A DNA stretch of 64,000 nt, from contig NW_019028990.1 in NCBI RefSeq assembly GCF_002105155.1, forward strand, positions 558,001 through 622,000, read 5' to 3'. Under the pieces are notes generated by a model, which was not told the DNA's origin, searched no databases, and saw only the letters and a program-made list of their open reading frames with translations. Shown one piece after another: positions 17,300 through 64,000 of the stretch (positions are counted from its first letter, which is position 1; every line of letters starts with the position of its first letter). The position numbers and the translations under genes are program-made. The stretch is from Lobosporangium transversale (lineage: Eukaryota).

Positions 17300-17975
17300 C
17301 GTCTGTAGAAGTACTAAAGTTTCCTAAACTAATATCCAAATCCAAAATCAAGAAAGCTTCGAGCGCCTCTGACATTGCAAGAAATTCTTCAATTTCAAAC
17401 GGATTATACATCAAACTTATCTGGTCAAAGCTGTATTAATCTTGAGTGCCTCCGGCAATGCAATGGTTCCTTCATTCCCAATTAAGTTAGTCCGCAAGAC
17501 CAGTCTTCAAAGCGATGTTAACCTTGAGCGCCTCTGATAGCGTCATAGGTCTTGAGCTATTCCCTATGTTCAATTCATTAAGAGTCGTATTTAGCTTGAG
17601 TATCTCTGATAATTCAAAAACTCCCCCGTCCCCAATTGGATTGCCCCACAAGCTCACTCTGATCAAACTTGTGTTAATCCTCAGTACCTCTGATAATTCC
17701 AGAGCTCCTTCCTTCCCAAATGAGTTGCTAGCCAAGTCCAAAGCGACCAGAGTCGTATTGGCTTTGAGTACCTCTGACTGTGCAAGGATCCCTTCATCTC
17801 CGATTGAGTTGTACCCAAGTTCAAGGCAGTCAAAGCCCTGTTAGTCTTGAGTGCTTCCAACAGCACTAAAGCTCCTTCCTTCCCAGATGGGCTGATCCAT
17901 ACTTTCATATTGGCCAAAGTTCTGTTGATCTTGAGTGTCTCTGACAGCGCTACAATCCTTTCTGCTGTCAATTAC
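17300..17975 (-). pseudogene. Degraded RNI-like (NLRC3-type) leucine-rich-repeat gene fragment
   Basis: 28-aa repeats (LASNSFGKEGALELSEVLRINTSL, LWGNPIGDGGVFELSEILKLNTTL) split over several frames by frameshifts and stops. Confidence 0.8.
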
Positions 17976-18590: not shown

Positions 18591-19323
18591 CTCTGCAAAC
18601 ATCTTGTTTGTCGATGCTTTAATTAATCTAGTCTAGTTTAGTCTAATGTGGCCCAAAGTGAGGACAATATGTTAACGATTGTCTTTATAGTGGTCCACTT
18701 AACTTTCAGTGGACATTCTAACAACAGTCCTGCATCGTTCTTAGGGGCTCATTTGCAATAGAAGCTTTTAAGGCTATCATAAACTGTAATCAAAGTTGTA
18801 TTATAGTAAAAGCGGAAAAAGTGATCAGTTGACATGTGGCAAATTCAAATTTATAATCCTTTTCAAATGTCCTCTTCAATGATCATTTCAGTCCTCCTGG
18901 GGAGCAGTTGTAAGCAGAGGAATGAGCAAGTAGAGTGTGAACAAACGTTTATCTGAGCACTAAGGATTGTCACGTCACAATGACCCAGAAAATGGCACGT
19001 GGCTGATTTGAAAAAAATATTTTCTCACGCAAAGCCTAACCTTGAAATAAAGGAACAAATTTATCAGTTGCTCCTTTCTTTCCTTTGCTCCACTTCATTT
19101 TCGCCACCTTTTTCATATTTCACCACTTACCTCTTTTATTCATTCCAAGCCTTCATTTATTGCCTTTCTTTTCCTTTCCTTCTTTTTTTTTTGCCTTACA
19201 CATTTTTCATTATTGTTTCCATACCGTGACCACGGGTGAAAGAGTAAGAATATACTTTTGCCTATTTAGCCATCATTCTCCCTGCATTTCAACCACACTC
19301 AGTCTCACTCATCTTAATTTTCA

Positions 19324-21806
19324 ATGGCCACCACAAGGAGCTCAACACAAAAAAACATGGCTGCAAATGATTCCACAGAGAGCCAAGCACAAAAAAACAT
19401 GGCTGCAAATAAGCCTGAGGATGCCTCCACACTCAATAAACGAAAAAGAGAAAACCAACACCCACAACGAAAAAAGCGCGCCATCCCACTGCTGCTGCAG
19501 CTGAACTGCGTTGTTGAGGGAGAAGCAACGTCGTTCCCAGTAGAGATTTTCTGCGATAAATCGGTCGGGATGCTCAAGCAAGCCATCAAAGCAGAGAAAG
19601 CCAATGCATTTAAGGATATTGACGCTGACCAGCTCACCCTCTACAAGGTCTCCATCCCTGACAAAGGTGAGGTCATCTTTGAGTCAGGAATCGAGTCAAA
19701 AGAGGCTCTCACAATCGCGTCAATGGAGCTTTGGGAGATACTTAATTCTGAACTTCCAAGGAAAACTATCCATGTTTTTGTCAAGCCACCACAGCGAGGT
19801 ATATCTTTGGCTCTTGATGGACTGATTGTTGATATTTCCAGCTGATGAAGCTTGGTTTATATCTTAAACGGCCATGTGCATGATATCACCATTTGGTTTG
19901 TGTCTTGATAACTCAACGTTCTTTCTCATTATTCGCTTTTGATACTTAGCTCAGAAAAGAAAACAAGATGGAGATTCTGGTGAGTTTGGCTGAGAACCTG
20001 GTTATTGATCAATTCAGAGTGATGTGCAGTGCAGAAATCAAAAATATTGACTTTGATCACTCTATCTCCTTTATCAGAGTCACCCTCTAAAAAAGCTCGT
20101 CCAAGTATAAGTAGAGATCCTCTTATGGATGCGATTACAGAAGCAGGGCTTGTAACGAAAGGGATAGTGAATGGTAGCCCTGCCATCTCGCGTCTAAACT
20201 CGAAAGAGAGGGTCAAGCTGCTTTTGTACATGGAGGAGGGGTTATCAGGAGATAGTATTTACTGCAGCATTATTAGCGTGGCTCGCGAGCTCCGAAATTC
20301 TGGTGGTATCAAGGATTCCAAAATATTGACTGCCCCTGAGGGTCGTATCTTCCCTGTTGCCGGAACAAGGCATCTTTATATCAGAGATGAGTATAAAGAG
20401 CTTTATGACCATATTACATCCGAATTAAGTACCCCTCATGAAGTAACTCGTTTGAACCGACTCTTTGTCACTGGAACGCCTGGAATTGGGAAGTCAGCCT
20501 TTTTGGTCTATTTTGCCATCCGCCTCCTTGCCGAACACGATGAGGAAAATCCACCGATTATTATTTTCCATGAGAAGCAGAATACCGAATGTTATGCCTA
20601 CGGAGGAACAACTTGCCAACGTTATGGGGAGAGAGTAGATTTCAAAAATTTCCTTGAGCAACGTGAAACGTGGTATTTAGTTGATAGTGGTGAAAATCCT
20701 CAACCAGGTAAAGCCAGGACGATATTTTCAGCATCGCCAAGAACTCTCTATGGGCATTACGATGAACTCACCAAGGAAAATACACCAGATAGCTACTATC
20801 ATATGTCACTCTGGAGTCTGGATGAGCTTAAGGAATGTAGAGCCAATGTAAAGTTTTTTCATGTAGTGAGTGAAGCATTTTTGGAGGAGCTTTTTTACTA
20901 CTTGGGGGGCGTGCCAAGACAGGTTCTACAGTGTCCAGCCGATGTACTATCCAAAAATCAAAAAAATACTGAGCGTGCTAAAGAGGCTGCGTTATTCCGC
21001 GTCAATAATGCCATTAAAACACTCGAGAAACCAGCAGATCTTCTAAGGCTCTTTGCACGGGGAAAAGAAGCGAGTGAATTTAGTCGTTTACTCCATAGAG
21101 TCCCCACTTCTGACCATCTCGACTTCTACCTGGTGTGGGCATCTCGTTGGGTCGAATCACAGATTATGGACAAAATAAAAGATAACACTTGGGTCGATGT
21201 GTTGGCGAGACTTGTCAAAGGCGGAGAGGATATAGATAAAGGCCCACTGTTTGAAATCTATGCTCATCACTTATTTCGACGTGGTGATATTAGATTTCCC
21301 TTTAGGGATCTCCAGTCAGGCGAAACAGGATTTCTTGATTTCCAGCAAATCCAGAAGAGGTGTTTATCCGGACTTCAGAGGGATTATCAGGGCTCACTCA
21401 AGCAGCTGGCAAGTTGTTTGTACCAGAACATTCTAAATTTCCGTGCATTGATTTTGCATTGGGACCCAACGAGCTATTTCAGGTCACAGTATCAGAGGGG
21501 CATCCGATCAAGCAAGCACCATTCAAGGAGATGATTGATTGTATTACTGGACCCTGCTTGAAGGGAGACCGATCAAAGTCGAAGGGAGACCGATCAAAGT
21601 CGAAGGGAAGTGATGATATTTTCCTCTATTTTGTGGTGCCAGGAGACGTATATAACGATTTTAAAGTTCAGAACTTTCTTACCGCCAGAAATACGGTCGT
21701 CAAGAAGCCATATAAATGCTTAAAACATGTAAGACAGCGTGTCATAAAAATCGACATCGAAGCTGCATATTCAGGAGGATCAGCCGGTACGAATCTGAAG
21801 AATTAA
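19324..21806 (+). pseudogene. Crinkler (CRN) family gene: ubiquitin-like CRN header, P-loop NTPase and REase-fold nuclease; one frameshift
   Basis: Header LNCVVEGE..SFPVEI...LKQAIK...DIDADQLTLYKV...IHVFVKPP. Exons 19324-19798, 19950-19979 and 20078 onward. Walker A VTGTPGIGKS; REase-like FPCID...LFQVTVSEGHPIK in a second frame after a 1-nt deletion at about 21340. Confidence 0.88.
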
Positions 21807-22009
21807 ATCGAATAGCAATCAAGTGGATGAAATTTTGTCTTTTTTTAAAAAAAGCATTATACCCGTTCCTTGAGAAATTTTTACAATGGTTCATTCTTTA
21901 TGAATGAAGCCATCATTATCCACTTACCTTCTAGACGAATAAATAGAGCGGTTTAATCCGTCCTCCCTTCTACTTGGGGCATTTAGAACTTTATAAAGCT
22001 GTGATCATT

Positions 22010-24200
22010 ATGCGATCTTGTGTGCAAGAAAAGGCAGGATTTTGTGATACTATTATCAAAGAGTTTTGTAAAAACGGATAGAGATGAAGAATCCTGTGGA
22101 GAACCCAGTGAGAGTCTGATGATGAGACCCAAAACCATATTATTATCACCAGGACAGCTGGCATAGGAAATTATCCTTTCTCGTATGCTTTGTCATCTGG
22201 ATGCTTGCCACTTGCGGAAGACCTATCAATTATCATCATCCAGGGCGCCAAAACGTTTACCGGGAGCTAGGATGACAGCTCCACTCTAAAGACATAAATG
22301 TCCCATGGTGCGCGTGCACGGGATGGCAACCTGTGGCCAATGAGATCATATTAGTTGTATGTTCGGCCAATTTACCCTTTTTACTTGTCCGAAGGTAGAA
22401 TGACGCCTAGCCAATGGATGCTATTGCAAGTGTGTCCACAGGTCCTTGGAGAAGTCCATTGAGGAAACTCGGTTCCATCCAGGACAGATTTATTCCTAGC
22501 GTTCTTCACAAAAGTAGCAGAATTGCTTGGTGGAGTTGGCTTTAATTGCCTTGACAAGCTCCTGCAAGATTGGTTCGACAATCTAATCAGGGTCCTTTCG
22601 GAGCGGCATCAAAGCAACTCTATGTTTTTGGTTGTTTTGAACGAGGCGCAGGATGTGGGGAGGGGAGGCTAAATACCAGTTTATTAATAACGACGACACT
22701 ATGCGACCAATATTATCAGCATTCTTTCATGGATTGGAGGGCTTATCAGAGGATTTACCACGAATTTGCATAGTTCCTTGCGGGATAGGCTTTTGTATTT
22801 ATGATCCTGCTTGGGTTAAGAGAACTGGCAAAGCTTCAAGGAATATCGAGAAATTCTCGATGACTCGAGGTTCAAGAGTGCAGTATCGTTTCCTAGATGG
22901 GATAATCAAGCAAAAGTCCGGACATACTTCAAGACACTTGTGCGATATTTGGAGAAATAAAGTCACTCAAGCTCTGCATCAAAGCGGAGAGGCCATTTTA
23001 ATGATCAAGCAATCGAGATGCTATATGCTTGGTCCTGTGGTCGTCTCCGTCCAATGATCACTATAATAGAGAGCGTCATTGGACGTGCCGATGCAGGCCT
23101 TTGGAAGCAAGAAATCAAGGGCCTGGTGTGGTCGCTCACTGATCCAGGATATAAAGAATCTGGTAACCTATGCCATGAGTAATCTAGGATTCTGAAGCGT
23201 ATTAACAAAGGGGATGCAGGAATTAAAACCACTGTCGACATCAGGGAAACCTTCGGTCGAGCCGTAAAGAATGAATAGATTACTATATAGTAAAGACTTG
23301 ATATTGGAGTACAATGAGCCTGTTCCGGTCGAGGCTTCGTTTGCTCGAATTGTCGTTAATCAAAGGAAGAAGGAGTTTACAATAATCGTTGAGCCAATAG
23401 CATTTATAGCAGCAATTAACTTGTTTGAAGTGGATGACCCTTGATTGGTTAAATTGGTTAATAGTGTGTTGCTAGACGCCCCTACGTCTGGCACAAAGGG
23501 CACACATTTTGAGTATTTCAGTCCCGCTTTGTTAATTTCAATCTTCCAGAATTATAACAATGAACGAATTATTGGATACTCACTGTAACAAAGACTCAAT
23601 ACATGAATCCAAGTTAATCTCGCTCTTTTTTGTTTCCAAAAGAGAACCCATCTGGACCAGATATCGTCTTTGTACTGGAATCGGAGGGTAAATATTATCC
23701 TGGTTCCGTACAGTCAAAAATCGGCGATAAGGTCAAGAATTAAGGATGCCCACAATACACCTTGCCATAATTGCATCAAAGAACACCTCTCATCACCGTC
23801 TTCTCTCGGCTTTTGCTCGAATGGCATATCCTTGTTGCTGTTGTTTAGGCCTTACTTATCACGTTGCCTTATCATGTTGTCTTATCACGAACAGGGTGAT
23901 TATTCGCTAGCTAAAGTCAAAGAAGTTCCTACCATCAAAGACAAACGAATATAAACGACGTACTCAATATTAGCTTGTTGAACTTCCTTGAAAGTGCAAG
24001 GGAGTCCCTCAAGAAGTCAGAATTGACTCGAGCTGTGGAGGATGAGGGAGAAGGAAGCAAGCCCAAAGAACCACAGGCAAGGAGGACATCAAAGAGAATT
24101 GCCGATAAAGCTCAAGCTATGGAGCATCGCCCTAGCTCATGGAATATGAGTCCAACGTTTTCAAGAAGTTTGGGGCTCCTCTTCCAGTTTATGTTTGCGT
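22010..24200 (+). pseudogene. Highly degraded CRN-type NTPase/REase relics
   Basis: Scattered motifs: IIITxTAGIG (about 22140), (D)EAQ...RPILSAF...CIVPCGIG (22640-22790), VEASFAR...IVEPIAF, GTHFEY, and GPDIVFVL...VQSK (about 23654-23720). Many stops and frameshifts. Confidence 0.65.
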
Positions 24201-24610
24201 AGTCTTCATCAGTCAGGTCTTCACCGGCTGCCTTTAAAACACGCCGTGTTAAGGAACCCTTGTGAAAGTTTCAATCCCTGGCTGAGATCTTCTTCATCTA
24301 CGTCAGACTGCTGCTATCTCTTCGTCTGGATTGTGCCATAGGCAAGTGGATTCAGAACAAGGCCATTGGTAGAATCGTCCCTTTGGGTTTGAACCGAGTT
24401 ATACCTTTGTCTTGTGCCTGTAGGGGTACCTTGTCTCGATAGCCATGAAACATGCGATCTCCTTCAATGTCACAAAGAGAGCCTGTATCTAGACCTCTTT
24501 TGTTCCCTGTACACATTCAAACACTGCAGCCTTGGGAGGATTGTCGAGAGGATGTCAGTTAGGACGTGTTCAGACAGATACACATACCGAGGGGGGACGT
24601 AAGGAAGTCT

Positions 24611-24642
<32 letters not shown>

Positions 24643-26051
24643 CCCACTCCATTGTTCTCTGGCAAGAAAAGCTCATCGAACAATAAAAAAAATAGAGAGC
24701 TTTAATAGAGAGCAATCGACTGCAGAATATGCATGAGGATTCTCTACACAAAGTTATATCTTTGTGCTCCTGTGGTGAATACATGGGTAGATTTGACTCG
24801 GTCTGTAGGAACTGATTTGAAACAGGTGGCTACATCCTTGTCAAAGGTAACAACAAAAGAAAAAAGTCTTCTTTCTTCTTTTTATCAGAGAATGGCCTCA
24901 TATGATGCTCTTTGCTCCAACAGCTCCAGCACTTTTGCGTTAAAGCAGAGATATTCGTTGGCTCTCGGGTTCCGGCATCATTGGTGGAGATAGGAGTGAT
25001 GTAGTTGCATGCGCTTATTGCTTGTAGTAAGAACTATCTTAGTACCTTTCCTTACTAGACGACGCCCTGTTAATGGTGATATTGTGCAGCGCCTTGTGGA
25101 AGGAGGGAGAGCAGAAGCGAGATTAATACCGACGCGTTTGATCCTCTCCTAGAAGTATTTTTGATTATGGAGTGATCGCCAAAATAAAGTTTGTTCATTT
25201 CTTCTGGAGGCATCAATGGAAAAGGCTTGTGTTTTAGCAAAATGTGTTTGTGCATGTACAGAAACAAAAGAGATGCTTCAGCTGCTTATTCGTGCACACA
25301 ATGATTGACGAACAAAAAAGGAAAAAGATTTGCCAAATAAAAAAAAAGCCCGCGATAAAAGAAGGCATATGCAGACAACAAATAAACACAGCAACTGTTT
25401 GCTCACATACATTTTTTTCACCGTTGTGTCTGTATCTCTTCTAAGCTTTCTGTCTGGCCGTTTAACACAAGGAACCCTCAGAAAAAGAAATACCTCGCAT
25501 GATTGGTGCCAGGTCTGAAAACAACAATAATGCAATGCTGTACGTGGAAGATAGGGTCTAGAAGCTATACCATTGATCACAACTGCTACTCATGCTCTCT
25601 TGCCAAGGACTTGAACAGGCATACCAACCCCTTCTTCCTTGCTCTCATAACCGCTCACATCCTTTCGATGCATTCTTTCGCCGTTTATGTCCACTACATC
25701 TGAACCACACACAGTTCATCACTCACTCCAACAGAGATATTTGTATCACCTTGGGTATGATATGTTGCTGTGGTTCCCTCTGGTTTCAACAGGCCCAACA
25801 AACTCTATTAGCAGTGATTATCAACCCAAATACATCAAGGGAACGCAAGAAGACAAGCAAATGATGCGACAAATCAAGTCTCGTCGAGCTGTACAGAAAA
25901 AGATCAAGTTAGTCAGGCTGTAGAACGAATCAACTCAGATTGCCTCAATCATACGACGAATATTATCATCACTATATCACATCAATCAATCAATAAACGA
26001 TACAATGAGGCCCCCCAAGCGGACAATGGAGTCATGCGAAAGTCTTCATGA

Positions 26052-27837
26052 GTATTATGGTCTAACCCAACAGTTCGAGAGGAGATAGTCCAATTGTTGG
26101 AACTAAACATGAGTACCAAGGGGGCTGCGGAGGACAAGATCCTTAGCCACAAGGGGATATTGTTGCAGGAGCTGTTTTCCTTGAAAGGATACAAGGACGT
26201 TGGACTGCAATCTGATGATGGCCCTAGAAGGAAACTACGGACATCGTTCTTTACAAACGGCCTTACCCTAACACTTCTTGCCTATGATACATCGAAGCAA
26301 AAAAGAGGTAGAGGTTCGCAAGCTGCCCAACCTTCGGATACTCAAAGATCTCAAGCAGTCCAGGCTTCTTCAAGTGCTCAGCAGGGATCCTCGTCTTCAG
26401 GCCATGGTGCAGGTGATGGTGGTGATGATGGAGACGACGACGGAAATGAAGATGACGATATCTTGCTGGGTATCAGCGATATTGACTTGCTCGAAGTTGA
26501 TGAACCATTCTTAGATGGCGAAGAGGGAGAAGAAGCAGCTGAAGAAGGTACATCGAGCACAAATCCACTGTTCCCGGTGAGTCCCAGTCCCCGGCGTGAG
26601 ATCAACTGGAAGCAGAGATCCCGTCTCCTCGAGAATGTAGAAGTTAAATATGACACCCAGGCAGCATGCCCTCCCCCCGAAAGTACCATTATCATTGGGA
26701 TCGATCCAGGCGAGAGGTACTCGATGACAATTGCAAAGTTGGATCCAAGGGAACCTAACGAACGTGAGATCCTCCGGATTTCTAGAGCGTACCTTTACAA
26801 ACCATCCAAGAAGTTTCAGGGCGAGCTAGAGAGGCGAAAGCTTAGAAGAGGAATTACAGAGATTGAAAGCAATATTCCGTCATTCTCAAGGCCTACTTTA
26901 ACACAGTATTCCGCTTATATGAGCTTGCGCTAAATCAAGCTCCATCAAGTACTGGAGGTAGTTTCTCTGGTAGTGGGGTTGGGGCCAGTAGAGCAGGGAC
27001 CGGTAGTAGCAGTGGAGTTGAGGCCAGTAGTAGCAGTGGATCTGGGACCAGTGACGACAATAGGGAGACTATATATAGGGCGCTTGTCGATTTCTATAAT
27101 GACGGGTGGTTTGTTCGGAATAGCTGGGATATTAGAAAAGCACAGAACGGATGCGTTGATTATGTGATCAAGGCAATTCTGAAGCTTGCGGGCGGAAGCA
27201 ATGGAAGAAGAAGAGATGCCAATACGAATGCGGTGATCTGTATTGGACTAGGATCATTCAAGACAAACCGAGGACAAGTATCGAAGCATGGGATATTGAT
27301 GAAGAAGCTTGTTGAAAAGGTAAAAAAAAAATCCCTTGATCAATGACATTCAATTTTTGAGTCTCTTTTTTAACGAGTATTAAATCTGGCTCGAACAGGC
27401 AAAATCTCTAGACTACCCCATTGTAGGTTGTCATGAATACTACACATCTGCCAAGTGTCCACGGCCTCACTGTGACAGTATATTGGAGAATGTTCCTTTT
27501 CGATCCAAGTACTGCCGAAATTGTAAAGCATACTTTGATCGAGATGCTGTTGGTGCTGAGAACATCGCAAGGGTCTGTGAGTCGCAGATAAGAGAGCAAA
27601 AACGACCTGCAAAATATATATATGCCGCCGGACGGAGGAACTCAAGGCCAAGCTTCTAGCGGTAGTGGCGGCGGTGGAGGTAGTGGTGGCAGTGGTGGCA
27701 GTGGTGGTGGTAGTAGCAGATCCACAAAAAGGAAATTTTCAGATGAAGGAGGAGGAGGAGTAGAGGGATCAAGACCACCGAAAGGGCCTTTGCTGGGTCC
27801 AGGAGGAGGGGGAGAGACAAGCCGACAACAACAGTAG
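26052..27837 (+). pseudogene. Fanzor1 (eukaryotic TnpB/Cas12-like RuvC nuclease), 5'-truncated and frameshifted, with one intron
   Basis: SFFTNGLTLTLLAYD; RuvC-I IIIGIDPGER (D at 26703); after a frameshift near 26920, LVDFYN..F.RNSWDIRKAQ...D.VIKAILKLAGGS and VICIGLGSF. GT-AG intron 27320-27398. Final exon IVGCHEYYTSAKCPRPHC...YCRNC...FDRDAVGAENI...RPAKY (E at 27435, D at 27543). Confidence 0.9.
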
Positions 27838-27854
27838 GACACAATCTACTACAA

Positions 27855-28042
27855 ACATGACTAGGTCCAGAAAGGCCTTCGTCTTAAAAAAATTGGTTTG
27901 ATAGTACTTTTTTTTCTTGGTTAATTTATTTATTTATTTATTTATTTCTGTGTTCTAATACATTTCTTCTTTTTACAATAGATGGAATGTCTCGTTTTTT
28001 AATGGGACGGACTATATTAATGCGTTTTAATAGGACGGACTA
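27855..28042 (+). ncRNA. Candidate Fanzor omegaRNA scaffold / transposon right end
   Basis: Lies directly 3' of the Fanzor ORF. Hairpin AGGTC-CAGAAA-GGCCT; CGTCTTAAAAAA can pair with TTTTTTAA(TGG)GACG; ends in two copies of TTTTAAT(G/A)GGACGGACTA. Assignment is inferred from position. Confidence 0.45.
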
Positions 28043-28463
28043 TCCCTTGAACCGTAATAAGGGCAAATATGCCCTTATAACCTTATTCTACCCACAATGT
28101 ACTGTATTTAGTTTTCTCGAAAAGTTATTAAGTCACGGTCACCCCTTTCCTAAGCCAGATCGAAAGTACGCAAAAAATTACATCGGCTTGGCAACTCATT
28201 CATTCTTTTTATCGCCATTCTCGTAAAGCAGAGCCCAATATATTCCTATTCTAAAATGATTATTGAATTGATTTTGTGGCTTTTATTTTTGATGACGGGC
28301 TTATTACAGGCAAACTTATTTAACATTTGAAAGGCGCTATTGGCTGCAAAGCCTGCAATACATTCGAAGGTTACTCAAAAAATATATAATGTACCACCAT
28401 AAATGTTACATTGGTCCACTACGGCATTTTTATAAGGGCAAATATGCCTTACGGTTTAAGGGA
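28043..28463. mobile_element. MITE (about 420 bp) with TA target-site duplication, inserted at the putative Fanzor element end
   Basis: Left TA|TCCCTTGAACCGTAATAAGGGCAAATATGCCCTTATA; reverse complement of right TA|TCCCTTAAACCGTAAGGCATATTTGCCCTTATA. Confidence 0.8.
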
Positions 28464-28465
28464 TA

Positions 28466-29168
28466 GAATTAATCTATTTGACAACCCGGGTTGTCACTCT
28501 TATTTGACAACCCCCCCCTTAATTATTTTTCTCAATTTTTTTTCTTTGCGTGACAACCCGGGGTTGCCAAATAGTAAAATATCTAATTTGACAACCCCAA
28601 GCTCACTATTATTTGACAACCCTTTTTTATTGGCAAGATTATTATGTGAAAATCGTTTCTATTGCTATCCCTCAGCAACATGAAATCCCTCCAGCAATCT
28701 AAAAGCTTCCATCAAATAACAAACTTTTTTTTTTTGGTTACGAGGTTTTTTATTACAACTGATTTCTAAAACAAGGGTTTGCTTTTATAGAAAATGTGCC
28801 TATACGGGTAACATGCACTAAGGGGTTTTTTTGGATAAATAAGCATGCATAAATTCGGAGTGGTTATGCGACGCTTGATGGCGCATGCGTAAGACGCGGA
28901 AAGGAAAAAAAAGAGAGACAGAAGAAGCTATAACCACAGTCATGATAATGGAGTGTTGCCACCATTTTAGAAATCCAGCTGAGAAAGGTCCTCCATAAGT
29001 ACAAGAGGGTGAAGACTTGTCATGTGACAGGTTGAAAAAGACAATTTTTCTTCTTTTTTTGACAACCCGGGTTGTCAAATAACAAAAAAGTGAAAATTGA
29101 AGACCTGGGTTGCCAAATAAGCCGGTGTGACTGCTAAATTAGGGGGGGGTTGTCAAATAGATTCACCC
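28466..29168. mobile_element. Non-autonomous Mutator-like (MULE) element, 703 bp
   Basis: Exact 9-bp TSD TAAGGGATA at 28457-28465 and 29169-29177. TIR core AATCTATTTGACAACCC at both ends; multiple internal TGACAACCC / GGGTTG(T/C)CA motifs. Confidence 0.85.
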
Positions 29169-29247
29169 TAAGGGATAAGAATAAAGCCAATTTTGATCTC
29201 CACGTGACACAACACAAGCCTCAAAAAAGAAAAATCATACACAAACA

Positions 29248-30360
29248 GTGGCTTGATGCTCAATTGAGATGACGGCCATTTGACCCTGGAGCATTATATT
29301 TGACATAGTTTTATTGACAGGCTAGCGCTCACAATCAGAAGCAAAAAAAAAATCATCTCTTGATTGCATTTGTTTCAAGCATCTCGTCGACGTGCTCAAA
29401 ATGACTGGTACTTTTCGAAGATCTCCTTGGGCTCTGGGCTCATGACAAAGAGCGTAGAAAGGGTATTATTCTCATCATAGGCGACGTCATAGAACCACTT
29501 GTTGGTTGCTAGGTCCTGCATCGCGCCTGGAAAAGAGCCGAAGCCCCCGCGATCTTTTCGATCTTGCAGCATAACTAGGTTCTGTATATCACAAGTAGTT
29601 AGAATACTACCCCAAGGTTGGGCCTGATATAGCTGGACAATCTCTTTGGGTTTGACGCCGTAATGATAACAATCGAGAATCCACTTATTATCTTCTTCAG
29701 GCCTTCGTTGAGCGATAAGACTGGTATGAAGATCACCGAGCGCGTGGTTGTGTACAAGCAAATGTTATTGGGCTTGAATGATTCGCCTTGCCGTGTGACA
29801 TGGATGAAAAAAGGGCAATCATTAAGTTTCGAGCCTACATTCTGACGAATCAGATCTTTACCATCAGTAATGAGGTTGGTTCGGTACTTACCACCATAGG
29901 CACATGCCAAATGTATGAACTTGGCTGAACAAGAGCGAGTCTTGAGGGCAAATCCGTACGCCAATGCGATTTGCATGTAATAATTCTTTGCCGCAATCGA
30001 GGTCTCGAATTCTTATCATTCAAAATATCTGACATATCAATTTCGATAGCTTTCAAAGATTGATTATCATTATTTTCTGTAACACCGTCGGAGTCAGCAA
30101 TAGGCTCCCATGATCAGAGCCAATAGTTGCTAAATCGACCGGATTGGGGGGCGTTGCTTCTGGGGCAGTAGCGCCTAACAGCTTGAAGCCAAGATCCGAC
30201 ACTGTTAAGTCATCGCTCAATACGCTGGTGGTGTCGAGGTCTGGCATAGCTGCAATGAAAATTACCGAAGTGGAGAAGGAATATGTAAAAAAAAAAACAA
30301 TTTGGGGCAATGTTCGTCAATTGAGATGTCTGACCACAGCCTCAAGCCACCTACACCCCT
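29248..30360 (-). mobile_element. MULE/FAR1-type transposase remnant (N-terminal WRKY-GCM1-like domain) with degenerate TIRs
   Basis: AYGFAL...LACAYGGKYR...SKLNDCPF...HNH and WFYDV...LSTLFVMSPE over several frames. GTGGCTTGA(T/G)GCT..CAATTGA is inverted at about 29248 and 30350. Confidence 0.75.
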
Positions 30361-57943: not shown

Positions 57944-58912
57944 CTATCATGGACGCCAAAGACTCCGTTATCTCCAACTCTTTTACGATTAAAAAAAACT
58001 GCTTGGCTTCTACAAATGGAATGTTTTATTTCTTTATTATTAATATTTTGGGTTTGTCATTCTCCGCTATGGCGTGAATAGATGGAGAAAAAGAAAATAC
58101 AATGAGGCTTGGAATATTAGTAAAATTGCTAAAACAACCTCATCGTCCTTCTCTGTGGTTTCATTTTTCTTTTTCATTTTCCTGTTGGAAAAGGGATGGA
58201 TAATGAATGCAAAAAAACATTGAATTATTGGTTAGGAAATCCACGCTAAGAAGCCAAGTTGATTTTCCAATGGAGACATGCAAGCACAGACCAATTATCT
58301 GCTGAGGAACCAGTAGATTCTCTTGCTCTCGTATTTCAGCCACATTGCAGGAAAAAAAAAAATCTTATCCAGATACAAGATTGGTCTCATAGTCAAAGAT
58401 TAGTTAGTTTAGTTAGTTTATACATGTGAACATTCTAGGACAGCATAAATTTAATTGACAGTATGGTATAGCCTGATATACTTAATTGATATCAGGCACC
58501 CACGTAGACTCAGGTGTCAAACGCTGGGGCCGAACACATCAGCCCATGCAGACACAAACTCCTCTCAGCACAGTGGACTACAGATTACCCATTTCTTAAA
58601 AAGCCTCTTTTGTAAAAGATAAGGAAAGCAAGGAACAATGAACCTGAAGAGCGTAGGAATTAGAAAAAAAAAAAAAAAAGGTGGAGATACACTAAAAAGC
58701 AAGGACATCACTTCTCTCTATCAAGCTTTTGTAGGGGTAGCCAGATCGGAGATGAAACATCTTGCTCGTCTTCATCGCTCTTTTTAATTTTTATGATAAT
58801 TTAAGCGTCGATCGAGCTATTCGGGATCTCAACTTAATAGGAACTCTAAAGTTGTTATTTTAAATCAAAATGGAAATAAATATACACAGTATGTATACAC
58901 GTTTATATAGTA

Positions 58913-59098
58913 TACTCCGTCCCATTTGGTCAGTGATTCATATATTTTTTGAATAATCTTGATTGAATTGGGAGCCAATTATATTCCTTGGCACCAGTTC
59001 GTCACAGAGGGTGAAATGTCAAAATCAGCCACCAAATCAATTCAATCATCGTTTTTTGAATAGAAAATATATGAATCACTGACCAACGAGTTGGAGGA
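58913..59098. mobile_element. Tc1/mariner-type (Stowaway-like) MITE with TA TSD
   Basis: Left TA|TACTCCGTCCCATTTGGTCAGTGATTCATATATTTT; right AAAATATATGAATCACTGACCAACGAGTTGGAGGA|TA, giving a 23-bp perfect inverted core. Confidence 0.8.
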
Positions 59099-60076
59099 TA
59101 GGACCTGTAGGCAGTACAAAATGACATTTGTTTATCAGGTCATGGATTTTAGCACAGCAGAGAAACATCAGATGCAAAATAGGAATAATTATCCGAGTTC
59201 AGGCTGCATAACTCTTCTCTCATCCTTCATTCGCCAACGGCCAATATCCAACAACTACCTGAGTGTTCCTCTGAACGCTTTTTTGACAAGACAATTTTCT
59301 AGCCAAATAGACACAACTCTACTTGCTCATTTGCTAAGCCCGGTCTATCTAAGGGGAGTGAGACTTCTTTTGCATGTGGGAAGATGACTAATAACAACGG
59401 GCAATAGTTCTGCCTCCATGCAATGGAGGATTGATTGAATCCGTTTGACTTTCTGTTTTTTTTTTTTTTGAACTGAAGGATCTGCAAGGTCGGGAATGTT
59501 GTCATTCCCTTATCCATTTTCCTCATAGCCGAAAATGGTCCACACTATCTAACTTTGTTTAAGAGCCTAGATCACGCTAAAGGTTGCTGGGTTCATGCAA
59601 TTATTCTGCGAGTTTTGTCTCATGACCTTCCTCCAACCAAATAGAATGCACTTTCCTGTGAAGGGGAACTGAATCCTGATCTTTTTACATCAATACCCAA
59701 ATCTGAATTATTATATATACCGTAAAAGCTTTTTTTTTGTCCGTGTAAACAAAATATGAAACCATGAAAGGTTTCAATATATTCCATCCATGAAGCATTT
59801 GAGGAGTGTGTCTTTTCCTTGTTCTCAGTATTTGCCGTTTCAATTGAGGCTGTTACACTTGTGCTGCCTCTTCTCCTTCGTATTTGATACTATTCGTAAA
59901 CACCCCAAACCAACATTACCAATCAAAACCTTTTTTTTTTTTTTTTTTTCCGTTTTATATAATATAAACTATCTTTAACTTGAGAATATTGTTGTTTGCA
60001 AGAGGACAGGACAAATTACTCGAATTAGACTGCCCTTTCTCTTCCTCACACACGCGTCAAAGTCACTTGGCTCTGC

Positions 60077-63884: not shown

Positions 63885-64000
63885 TAGCCCGTTCCATTTG
63901 GTCGCGATCCCTTATATTTTTTGAATACTCTTAAATGTATTGGCAGCCAATTGACTCGCTTGTTATTGCAAGTGGTGTGACTGGTCATTAAAATTAATTT
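63885..64000. mobile_element. Second, diverged copy of the 58.9-kb MITE family (left part; cut by the window end)
   Basis: TA|TAGCCCGTTCCATTTGGTCGCGATCCCTTATATTTTTTGAATACTCTT...GCCAATT aligns colinearly with 58913-58980. Confidence 0.65.

Follow-up and report, generated by a model that had tools for sequence, protein, structure and literature searches.

A stretch of 64,000 nt of Lobosporangium transversale (GCF_002105155.1, NW_019028990.1, positions 558,001-622,000, forward strand), hereafter called the window, to which all coordinates refer, carries a broken copy of a gene for a Fanzor1 RNA-guided nuclease. That this locus is a dead Fanzor1 is almost certain. In its family, the full-length form is likely a protein of about 1,200 aa in which, on predicted models, an EXO1/FEN1-like 5' nuclease is fused to Fanzor1. 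The best explanation as a whole, to which we give a probability of roughly 0.6, is that the locus is a dead copy of a 5' nuclease-Fanzor1 family in which an RNA-guided cut would be combined with trimming by the N-terminal nuclease (the head), the RNA coming from the right end of the element. A dead Fanzor1 locus is ordinary and already known at family level; what is new here is the pointer to a conserved two-nuclease Fanzor1 architecture.

A dead Fanzor1 gene with a retained RuvC active site

The coding parts of the gene are listed in Table 1. Comparison of the public gene model P0012 with the window by tblastn gave four collinear blocks covering residues 268-834 (26052-26927, 26909-27340, 27390-27653 and 27619-27834), the second and third being linked in phase 0 by a 79-nt GT..AG intron. 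The order of these blocks shows that the exon at 27399 belongs to the Fanzor gene, as a sequence-only reading of the window had proposed. This exon alone exceeds the Pfam cut-off for Cas12f1-like_TNB (31.5 bits vs 26.3). With X placed at the two breaks, the read-through is open over 567 aa and is 97.4-98.0% identical to all five paralogues compared; this agreement is far beyond chance.

Contigs were obtained from four public runs (X1, X2 and X6 among them), three of which are DNA and one of which, X6, is only guessed to be RNA. High-depth multi-copy contigs have one base more behind 26927 and four fewer at about 27614. Since the deep contigs of other copies lack both breaks, these are true frameshifts of this copy and not introns. 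In the public gene model P0178 (482 aa; 26109-27837), spurious introns span the two breaks and the exon of the zinc ribbon is translated out of frame, so that RuvC-II and RuvC-III are hidden.

The rearranged RuvC triad reported by the sequence-only reading is present: the Asp of GIDPG (26697-26711), IGLG, whose first Gly (27245) occupies the canonical RuvC-II position, the relocated Glu of HEYYTSAKC (27435), a C4 zinc ribbon and the RuvC-III Asp of DRD (27543). The window copy thus bears the complete Fanzor signature (DPG, Gly at RuvC-II and relocated Glu), and its catalytic codons (GAT at 26703, GAA at 27435 and GAT at 27543) have been kept despite its death. Some positions in that reading required adjustment. 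The open reading frame (ORF) that it placed at 26094 does join the gene, but 26094 is a TTG and the first ATG stands at 26109; the frame switch set near 26920 is real and lies at about 26927. Its end at 27837 is right for the coding sequence, which has its stop there, but the element continues to 28014.

The motif D-X(125,275)-[TS]-[TS]-X-X-C4-X(5,50)-RD, given for Fanzor and TnpB by Bao and Jurka (PMC3627910), was found with 217 residues from D to E, then TS, AK, C4, five residues and RD. The narrower regular expression of Yoon 2023 (120-160, CxxC) was not matched, owing to the inserts and a Cx4C knuckle; the fingerprints of the same study include DPG at RuvC-I. Yoon 2023 and Jiang 2023 describe Gly or Pro at the canonical RuvC-II position and a catalytic Glu immediately upstream of the zinc finger (ExxxxxxC). 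Here, the Gly lies 37 residues upstream of the Glu of EYYTSAKC, compared with about 45 in Jiang 2023 and 34 in the Fanzor1 ROr-1 (our own count). Among aligned relatives, the RuvC-I Asp is found in 31 of 36 (the other five being gaps), the RuvC-II Gly in 37 of 40 and the relocated Glu in 30 of 40, with eight gaps.

The profile and structure comparison with SpuFz1 suggested earlier was run on the relative P0019 and gave SpuFz1, GtFz1 and PpFz1 as top matches. Single-sequence searches of the PDB returned low-complexity matches, none, or the TnpB-like L79 at E 0.2. On the P0019 matches and on the FZ1 label of a paralogue, the family is assigned by sequence and predicted models to the Fanzor1 clade and its fold with enlarged REC and RuvC, and not to Fanzor2 or TnpB. 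This paralogue, XP_021884711.1, is 98% identical and stands in row 1414 of supplementary file 3 of Saito 2023 (PMC10432273), so that the family, which the sequence-only reading thought might be uncharacterised, is already on record. No biochemical work on this Lobosporangium Fanzor1 family was found in the literature search.

Truncation and other copies

The copy is 97-98% identical to other L. transversale paralogues, and its 5' coding block starts abruptly at residue 268 of P0012 (286 of 292 residues identical). P0012 residues 31-768 align to residues 421-1180 of P0019, in which the Fanzor fold occupies 435-1181; in P0012 the fold begins near residue 45. About 220 residues of WED-I and REC are missing from the window copy, which has no complete ORF with these two parts. 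The sequence-only reading was therefore correct in calling the copy dead, with two frameshifts and a missing 5' part, but the missing content reaches beyond REC and WED: full-length relatives begin with an EXO1/FEN1-like nuclease domain. Its expectation of intact paralogues is borne out by open ones (97-98% identical). Intact candidates in public databases are P0019 and P0089 and, for the core, P0011 and P0012; KAG0303305.1 is an intact natural fusion.

The 5' truncation is not private to the window copy and is found in several copies. A contig bridging 25791-26082 has a depth of 75-87, against about 10 for unique contigs, and three gene models (P0001, P0013 and P0014) begin at one common internal Met. 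Over the gene, depth in X1 was 120-340; since contig depth is not copy number, "about 20 copies" is a rough reading only. At least 15 paralogous gene models were found. The multi-copy sequence that precedes the truncated gene in several copies (24862-26051) may represent the left end or promoter of a deletion derivative; the idea that it contains the missing exons was rejected, as no profile or tblastn match was obtained.

The predicted N-terminal nuclease head of full-length relatives

The fusion is very probably present in this family, and P0005, P0006 and P0019 are fusions within single gene models. In predicted models, the head has a PIN-like core, a helical arch and an H2TH fold, and when aligned to FEN1 it shows the seven carboxylates and the gateway Lys/Arg. 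Position by position, its active site is conserved in 47/49, 50/52, 51/52, 51/52, 47/52, 49/52, 50/52, 51/52 and 49/51 sequences. Both active sites, that of the head and that of RuvC, are conserved, the two folds being seen on predicted models. No Pfam call was obtained for the head in P0006 or P0019. Bit scores of head and core are weakly correlated (rho 0.37, 31 fused proteins) and were not used as evidence. A viral donor of the head is not indicated, since viral XPG/FEN nucleases are 9-16% identical to it, no closer than cellular ones.

In supplementary file 3 of Saito 2023, an XPG-like head was seen by eye at the start of several FZ1 rows adjoining that of Lobosporangium (KAF9949975.1, KAF9383209.1 and KAF9574392.1), and also of PWN96948.1 from the basidiomycete Tilletiopsis. 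Fused sequences stand unremarked in the available tables of Saito and Yoon, for example KAG9072621.1 and KAI8351750.1 (by eye), and term searches of the accessible text and supplements of Saito 2023 gave no mention of a PIN, XPG, FEN1 or exonuclease domain. The literature search returned no paper joining Fanzor with Mortierella, or Fanzor with XPG. A natural fusion of XPG, FEN1 or EXO1 with Fanzor is undescribed in the literature found (titles, term counts, abstract openings and passages), subscription papers, Repbase and some supplements being beyond reach.

Right end, terminal repeat and candidate omega-RNA

Summed contig depth in X1 falls from 733 (27989-28021) to 16 (28022-28054). Contigs end at 28014, 28015 and 28018, two X6 contigs continue into different flanks, and other copies diverge in sequence from 28015/28018. 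With this depth step at 28014-28021 and these differing flanks, the gene is part of a multi-copy element whose right end is conserved and whose flank varies.

The last 33 nt form a hairpin (z -3.74; 0 of 200 shuffles as stable). The terminal 14 nt and the following TA recur at the ends of TA-flanked MITEs (miniature inverted-repeat transposable elements), with one mismatch at 58913-58926 and two at 63885-63898; in shuffled windows, the expectation is 0.0 matches at one mismatch or fewer and 0.47 at two or fewer. This shared core therefore suggests a Tc1/mariner-type end. Fanzor1 in TA-flanked Mariner elements without a transposase is documented (Bao and Jurka 2013, PMC3627910). The two MITEs (58911-59100 and from 63883) are Stowaway-like and share the Fanzor terminal core at their ends; 10 nt of the left end of the local MITEs are also found in an end primer for rice Stowaway (PMC3660474). 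A second copy of the core (one mismatch) lies at 28026-28042, with its match at 28029, 28 nt past the first, and is possibly the end of a related element into which the Fanzor element landed. A scan of metagenomes gave one 5'-half locus (L001), without the terminal core.

Two other assignments were considered. A Helitron end, brought to mind by the hairpin, was set aside given the match of the terminal 14 nt to TA-flanked MITE ends. MULE/FAR1-like frames at 29399-30012 were rejected as the cognate transposase: their depth is close to single-copy, and two other repeats separate them from the element.

Between the stop and the hairpin there is a candidate 3' untranslated region (3'-UTR) intron. 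An 87-nt skip (27894 to 27982) occurs in X6 and is absent from the three DNA runs. The donor is GTAAGT in other copies and GG in the window copy, and loose contig ends lie at 27895. In X6, the coding part has a depth of 144-290 and the stretch 24635-25542 one of 0-7, against 18-425 for the latter in the DNA runs X1 and X2; unspliced variants reach high depth in X6 as well. These data, from a run whose RNA nature is a guess, hint at transcription of other copies and at splicing in their 3' UTR. Spliced folds are modestly better than shuffles (27/500 and 7/500 shuffles as good), and a spliced omega-RNA from the right end is weakly supported.

Proposed mechanism and alternatives

The element would be a non-autonomous Tc1/mariner-type transposon, moved in trans. 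Its omega-RNA would extend across the right terminal repeat and on into the flank, the latter acting as the guide. SpuFz1 uses a 75-nt scaffold over the right repeat, a 14-15-nt flank guide and the target-adjacent motif CATA, and leaves 5' overhangs (PMC10432273); a restorative-homing view of OMEGA systems has also been put forward (PMC13565253). By these two analogies, the donor site, once emptied, is likely cut by intact copies; we consider RNA-guided cutting by them quite probable. RuvC would cut this site, probably leaving 5' overhangs like those of SpuFz1, and the head would clip the overhang and resect 5' to 3'. Resection would favour homologous repair from an element-bearing copy (restorative homing) over end joining. 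FEN-superfamily enzymes have been solved on 5'-flap and 5'-recessed DNA (PDB titles); the head would therefore be suited to clipping a 5' overhang and resecting. That it acts on a DNA break at all is an even bet. The window copy has no working nuclease and could still supply guide RNA in trans. More tentatively, the Mortierellaceae, and perhaps smut fungi, may possess a natural two-nuclease "cut-and-resect" Fanzor, in which an EXO1-like head makes a recombination-ready end of the enzyme's own double-strand break and the guide is maybe finished by splicing of the 3'-UTR intron beside the terminal repeat.

Several observations weigh against this explanation. For the head, EXO1 and FEN1 were tied when the full model was compared, a result that favours no one substrate; no single Lobosporangium gene model has both complete domains; and the count of 31 fusions out of 31 is biased, as the search profile held both domains and the best 150 of 1,363 hits were taken. 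The Pro of DPG is kept in only 19 of 36 relatives. At the right end, 29 of 1,939 window 33-mers are as stable as the terminal hairpin, the fold of 27838-28040 is weak beyond this hairpin (z -0.45; -1.75 to -2.36 if spliced), no Rfam match was obtained in the 3' region, and neither a left terminal repeat nor a Mariner transposase was seen in the 64-kb window. Finally, engineered exonuclease fusions lowered indel editing by MmeFz2 (PMC12923547), a result that does not show a benefit of such a head, although resection is not expected to be read out as indels.

The main rival to break resection is the processing of flaps, R-loops or RNA. The same fusion would then use its head for 5' trimming of the omega-RNA from mRNA, at the R-loop junction or displaced strand, or on flaps and junctions formed during homing repair. 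Against such a role, EXO1 is ahead by 2 Z units when the Lobosporangium head is compared in isolation, the head has D at the second E of the EAEA of FEN1 and XPG, a change that we take to be EXO1-like, and TnpB-family RuvC domains are able to process their own RNA. We consider this alternative unlikely.

A role of the fusion protein as the mobility engine itself appears improbable. It would cut new sites, its 5' nuclease would drive copy-in repair with no transposase, and the MITE-like end would be inherited or coincidental. The identity among copies, indicating recent spread, the 3' end shared by many 5'-truncated copies, the left repeat and transposase not seen in the window, and the comparable MCi-2 elements of Mucor, which are unclassified and vary in their 5' parts (PMC3627910), would all fit. 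The terminal 14 nt, however, match two TA-flanked MITE ends with one and two mismatches (chance expectation 0.0 and 0.47 per shuffled window), and the transposase-less Mariner elements with Fanzor1 cited above also speak against it. Finally, we give very little credence to the head and Fanzor being separate neighbouring proteins in Lobosporangium, with plain Fanzor1 behaviour: the public annotation does split them into P0179 (341 aa) and P0012 (834 aa), the latter alone covering the whole Fanzor fold, but P0179 and P0003 overlap by 19 residues, single-model fusions exist, and three unrelated head-only records end at an identical residue, as an intron there would predict.

A fused 5' nuclease whose active site is strictly conserved offers a direct way into the natural role of eukaryotic Fanzors. 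Resection of the break by the head, if it occurs, would argue for homing by homologous recombination. The fusion would then also be a natural single-chain template for editors biased to homology-directed repair or to deletions, such as are now built by attaching exonucleases to Cas or Fanzor enzymes.

Neighbouring features in the window

Upstream, the minus strand carries the decayed remains of a second family, diverged but belonging to this Fanzor clade (Table 1). It gave tblastn matches down to 2e-31 with P0105 and P0074, is multi-copy by contig depth and resembles ORZ22893.1, listed as FZ1 in the table of Saito 2023. Further upstream, 19318-21803 (+) holds a Crinkler-type gene with a CRN N-terminal domain (Pfam, 7.9e-21), followed by a P-loop NTPase-like frame and then, overlapping the latter in another reading frame, a C-terminal frame. 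Repeats of 84-nt period at 17400-17950 (-) encode a leucine-rich repeat (RNI-like) fragment. The sequence at 22000-23900 is decayed and coding-like; over the mapped stretch, contig depth is greatest at 23500-23950, which is hence a repeat.

Downstream, a MITE-like insert at 28040-28466 has inverted ends of about 40 nt and an interior at near single-copy depth. It is followed at 28471-29169 by a multi-copy MITE-like repeat with inverted ends of at least 17 nt and internal palindromes, its left end clipped relative to other copies; its TAA flank presumably indicates the Harbinger/PIF type. Two overlapping frames at 29399-30012 (-) have no Pfam match, and we take them to resemble a MULE/FAR1 transposase fragment.

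Table 1. Features of the Fanzor1 locus and its surroundings (window coordinates).
Feature	Position	Strand	Basis
Decayed remnant of a second Fanzor family, same clade, diverged	23968..24625	-	profile iE 2.2e-6
Multi-copy sequence without protein match, joined to truncated gene in several copies	24862..26051		
Remaining 5' coding block, with the end of REC, the second part of WED, an acidic low-complexity insert and RuvC-I	26052..26927	+	
RuvC-I Asp of GIDPG (GAT)	26703..26705	+	
Frameshift 1 between RuvC-I and RuvC-II: one base fewer than in other copies	26927	+	tblastn, contigs
Second coding block: Gly/Ser insert, helices, IGLG strand	26928..27319	+	
Intron, 79 nt, phase 0, GT..AG	27320..27398	+	paralogue proteins read across
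Exon with relocated Glu (27435), C4 zinc ribbon, RuvC-III Asp (27543)	27399..27614	+	
Frameshift 2 in the tail, past RuvC-III: a TA run longer by four bases	27615..27618	+	contigs
Gly-rich C-terminal tail, basic KRK patch, stop	27619..27837	+	tblastn
Candidate 3'-UTR intron: branch-like CTAAT, pyrimidine tract, AG	27895..27981	+	87-nt skip, X6 only
Right end: hairpin and 14-nt terminal-repeat core, then TA; candidate omega-RNA scaffold end	27982..28014	+	
TA and flank particular to this copy; putative guide if omega-RNA is made	28015..28031	+	

Comparison with known systems

The head has the same fold and catalytic positions as the 5' nucleases of the Rad2/XPG family (FEN1, EXO1, XPG and GEN1). 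It differs from them in its low identity (15-17%), in scoring below the cut-offs of Pfam XPG (4 of 25 members, best 3e-4) and in its fusion to an RNA-guided nuclease carried by a mobile element. The TA-flanked right repeat is like that of Fanzor1 in Tc1/mariner elements with TA duplications (PMC3627910); in contrast to those elements, a left end and a transposase were not found in the window, so that we infer the superfamily.

As in SpuFz1 (PDB 8GKH, 9CEU-9CEZ) and PpFz1 (9CF0, 9CF1), the whole fold of WED, REC, RuvC and zinc ribbon is found in the family on predicted models, with the DPG, Gly at the canonical RuvC-II position, relocated Glu and RD of Fanzor1 (PMC10432273, PMC11423790). The family is also Fanzor1-like in being multi-copy with partial copies and in having a terminal repeat just 3' of the gene. 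In Saito 2023 (PMC10432273), XP_021884711.1, the close paralogue of the window locus, and ORZ22893.1, which matches the minus-strand remnant, are both FZ1 entries of file 3 and appear as tree leaves only; the XP_021884711.1 model is without the head. Unlike SpuFz1 and PpFz1, the gene has introns and low-complexity inserts, the window copy is dead, and the full-length relatives reach about 1,200 aa with a predicted EXO1/FEN1-like nuclease at the N terminus, followed by a basic linker.
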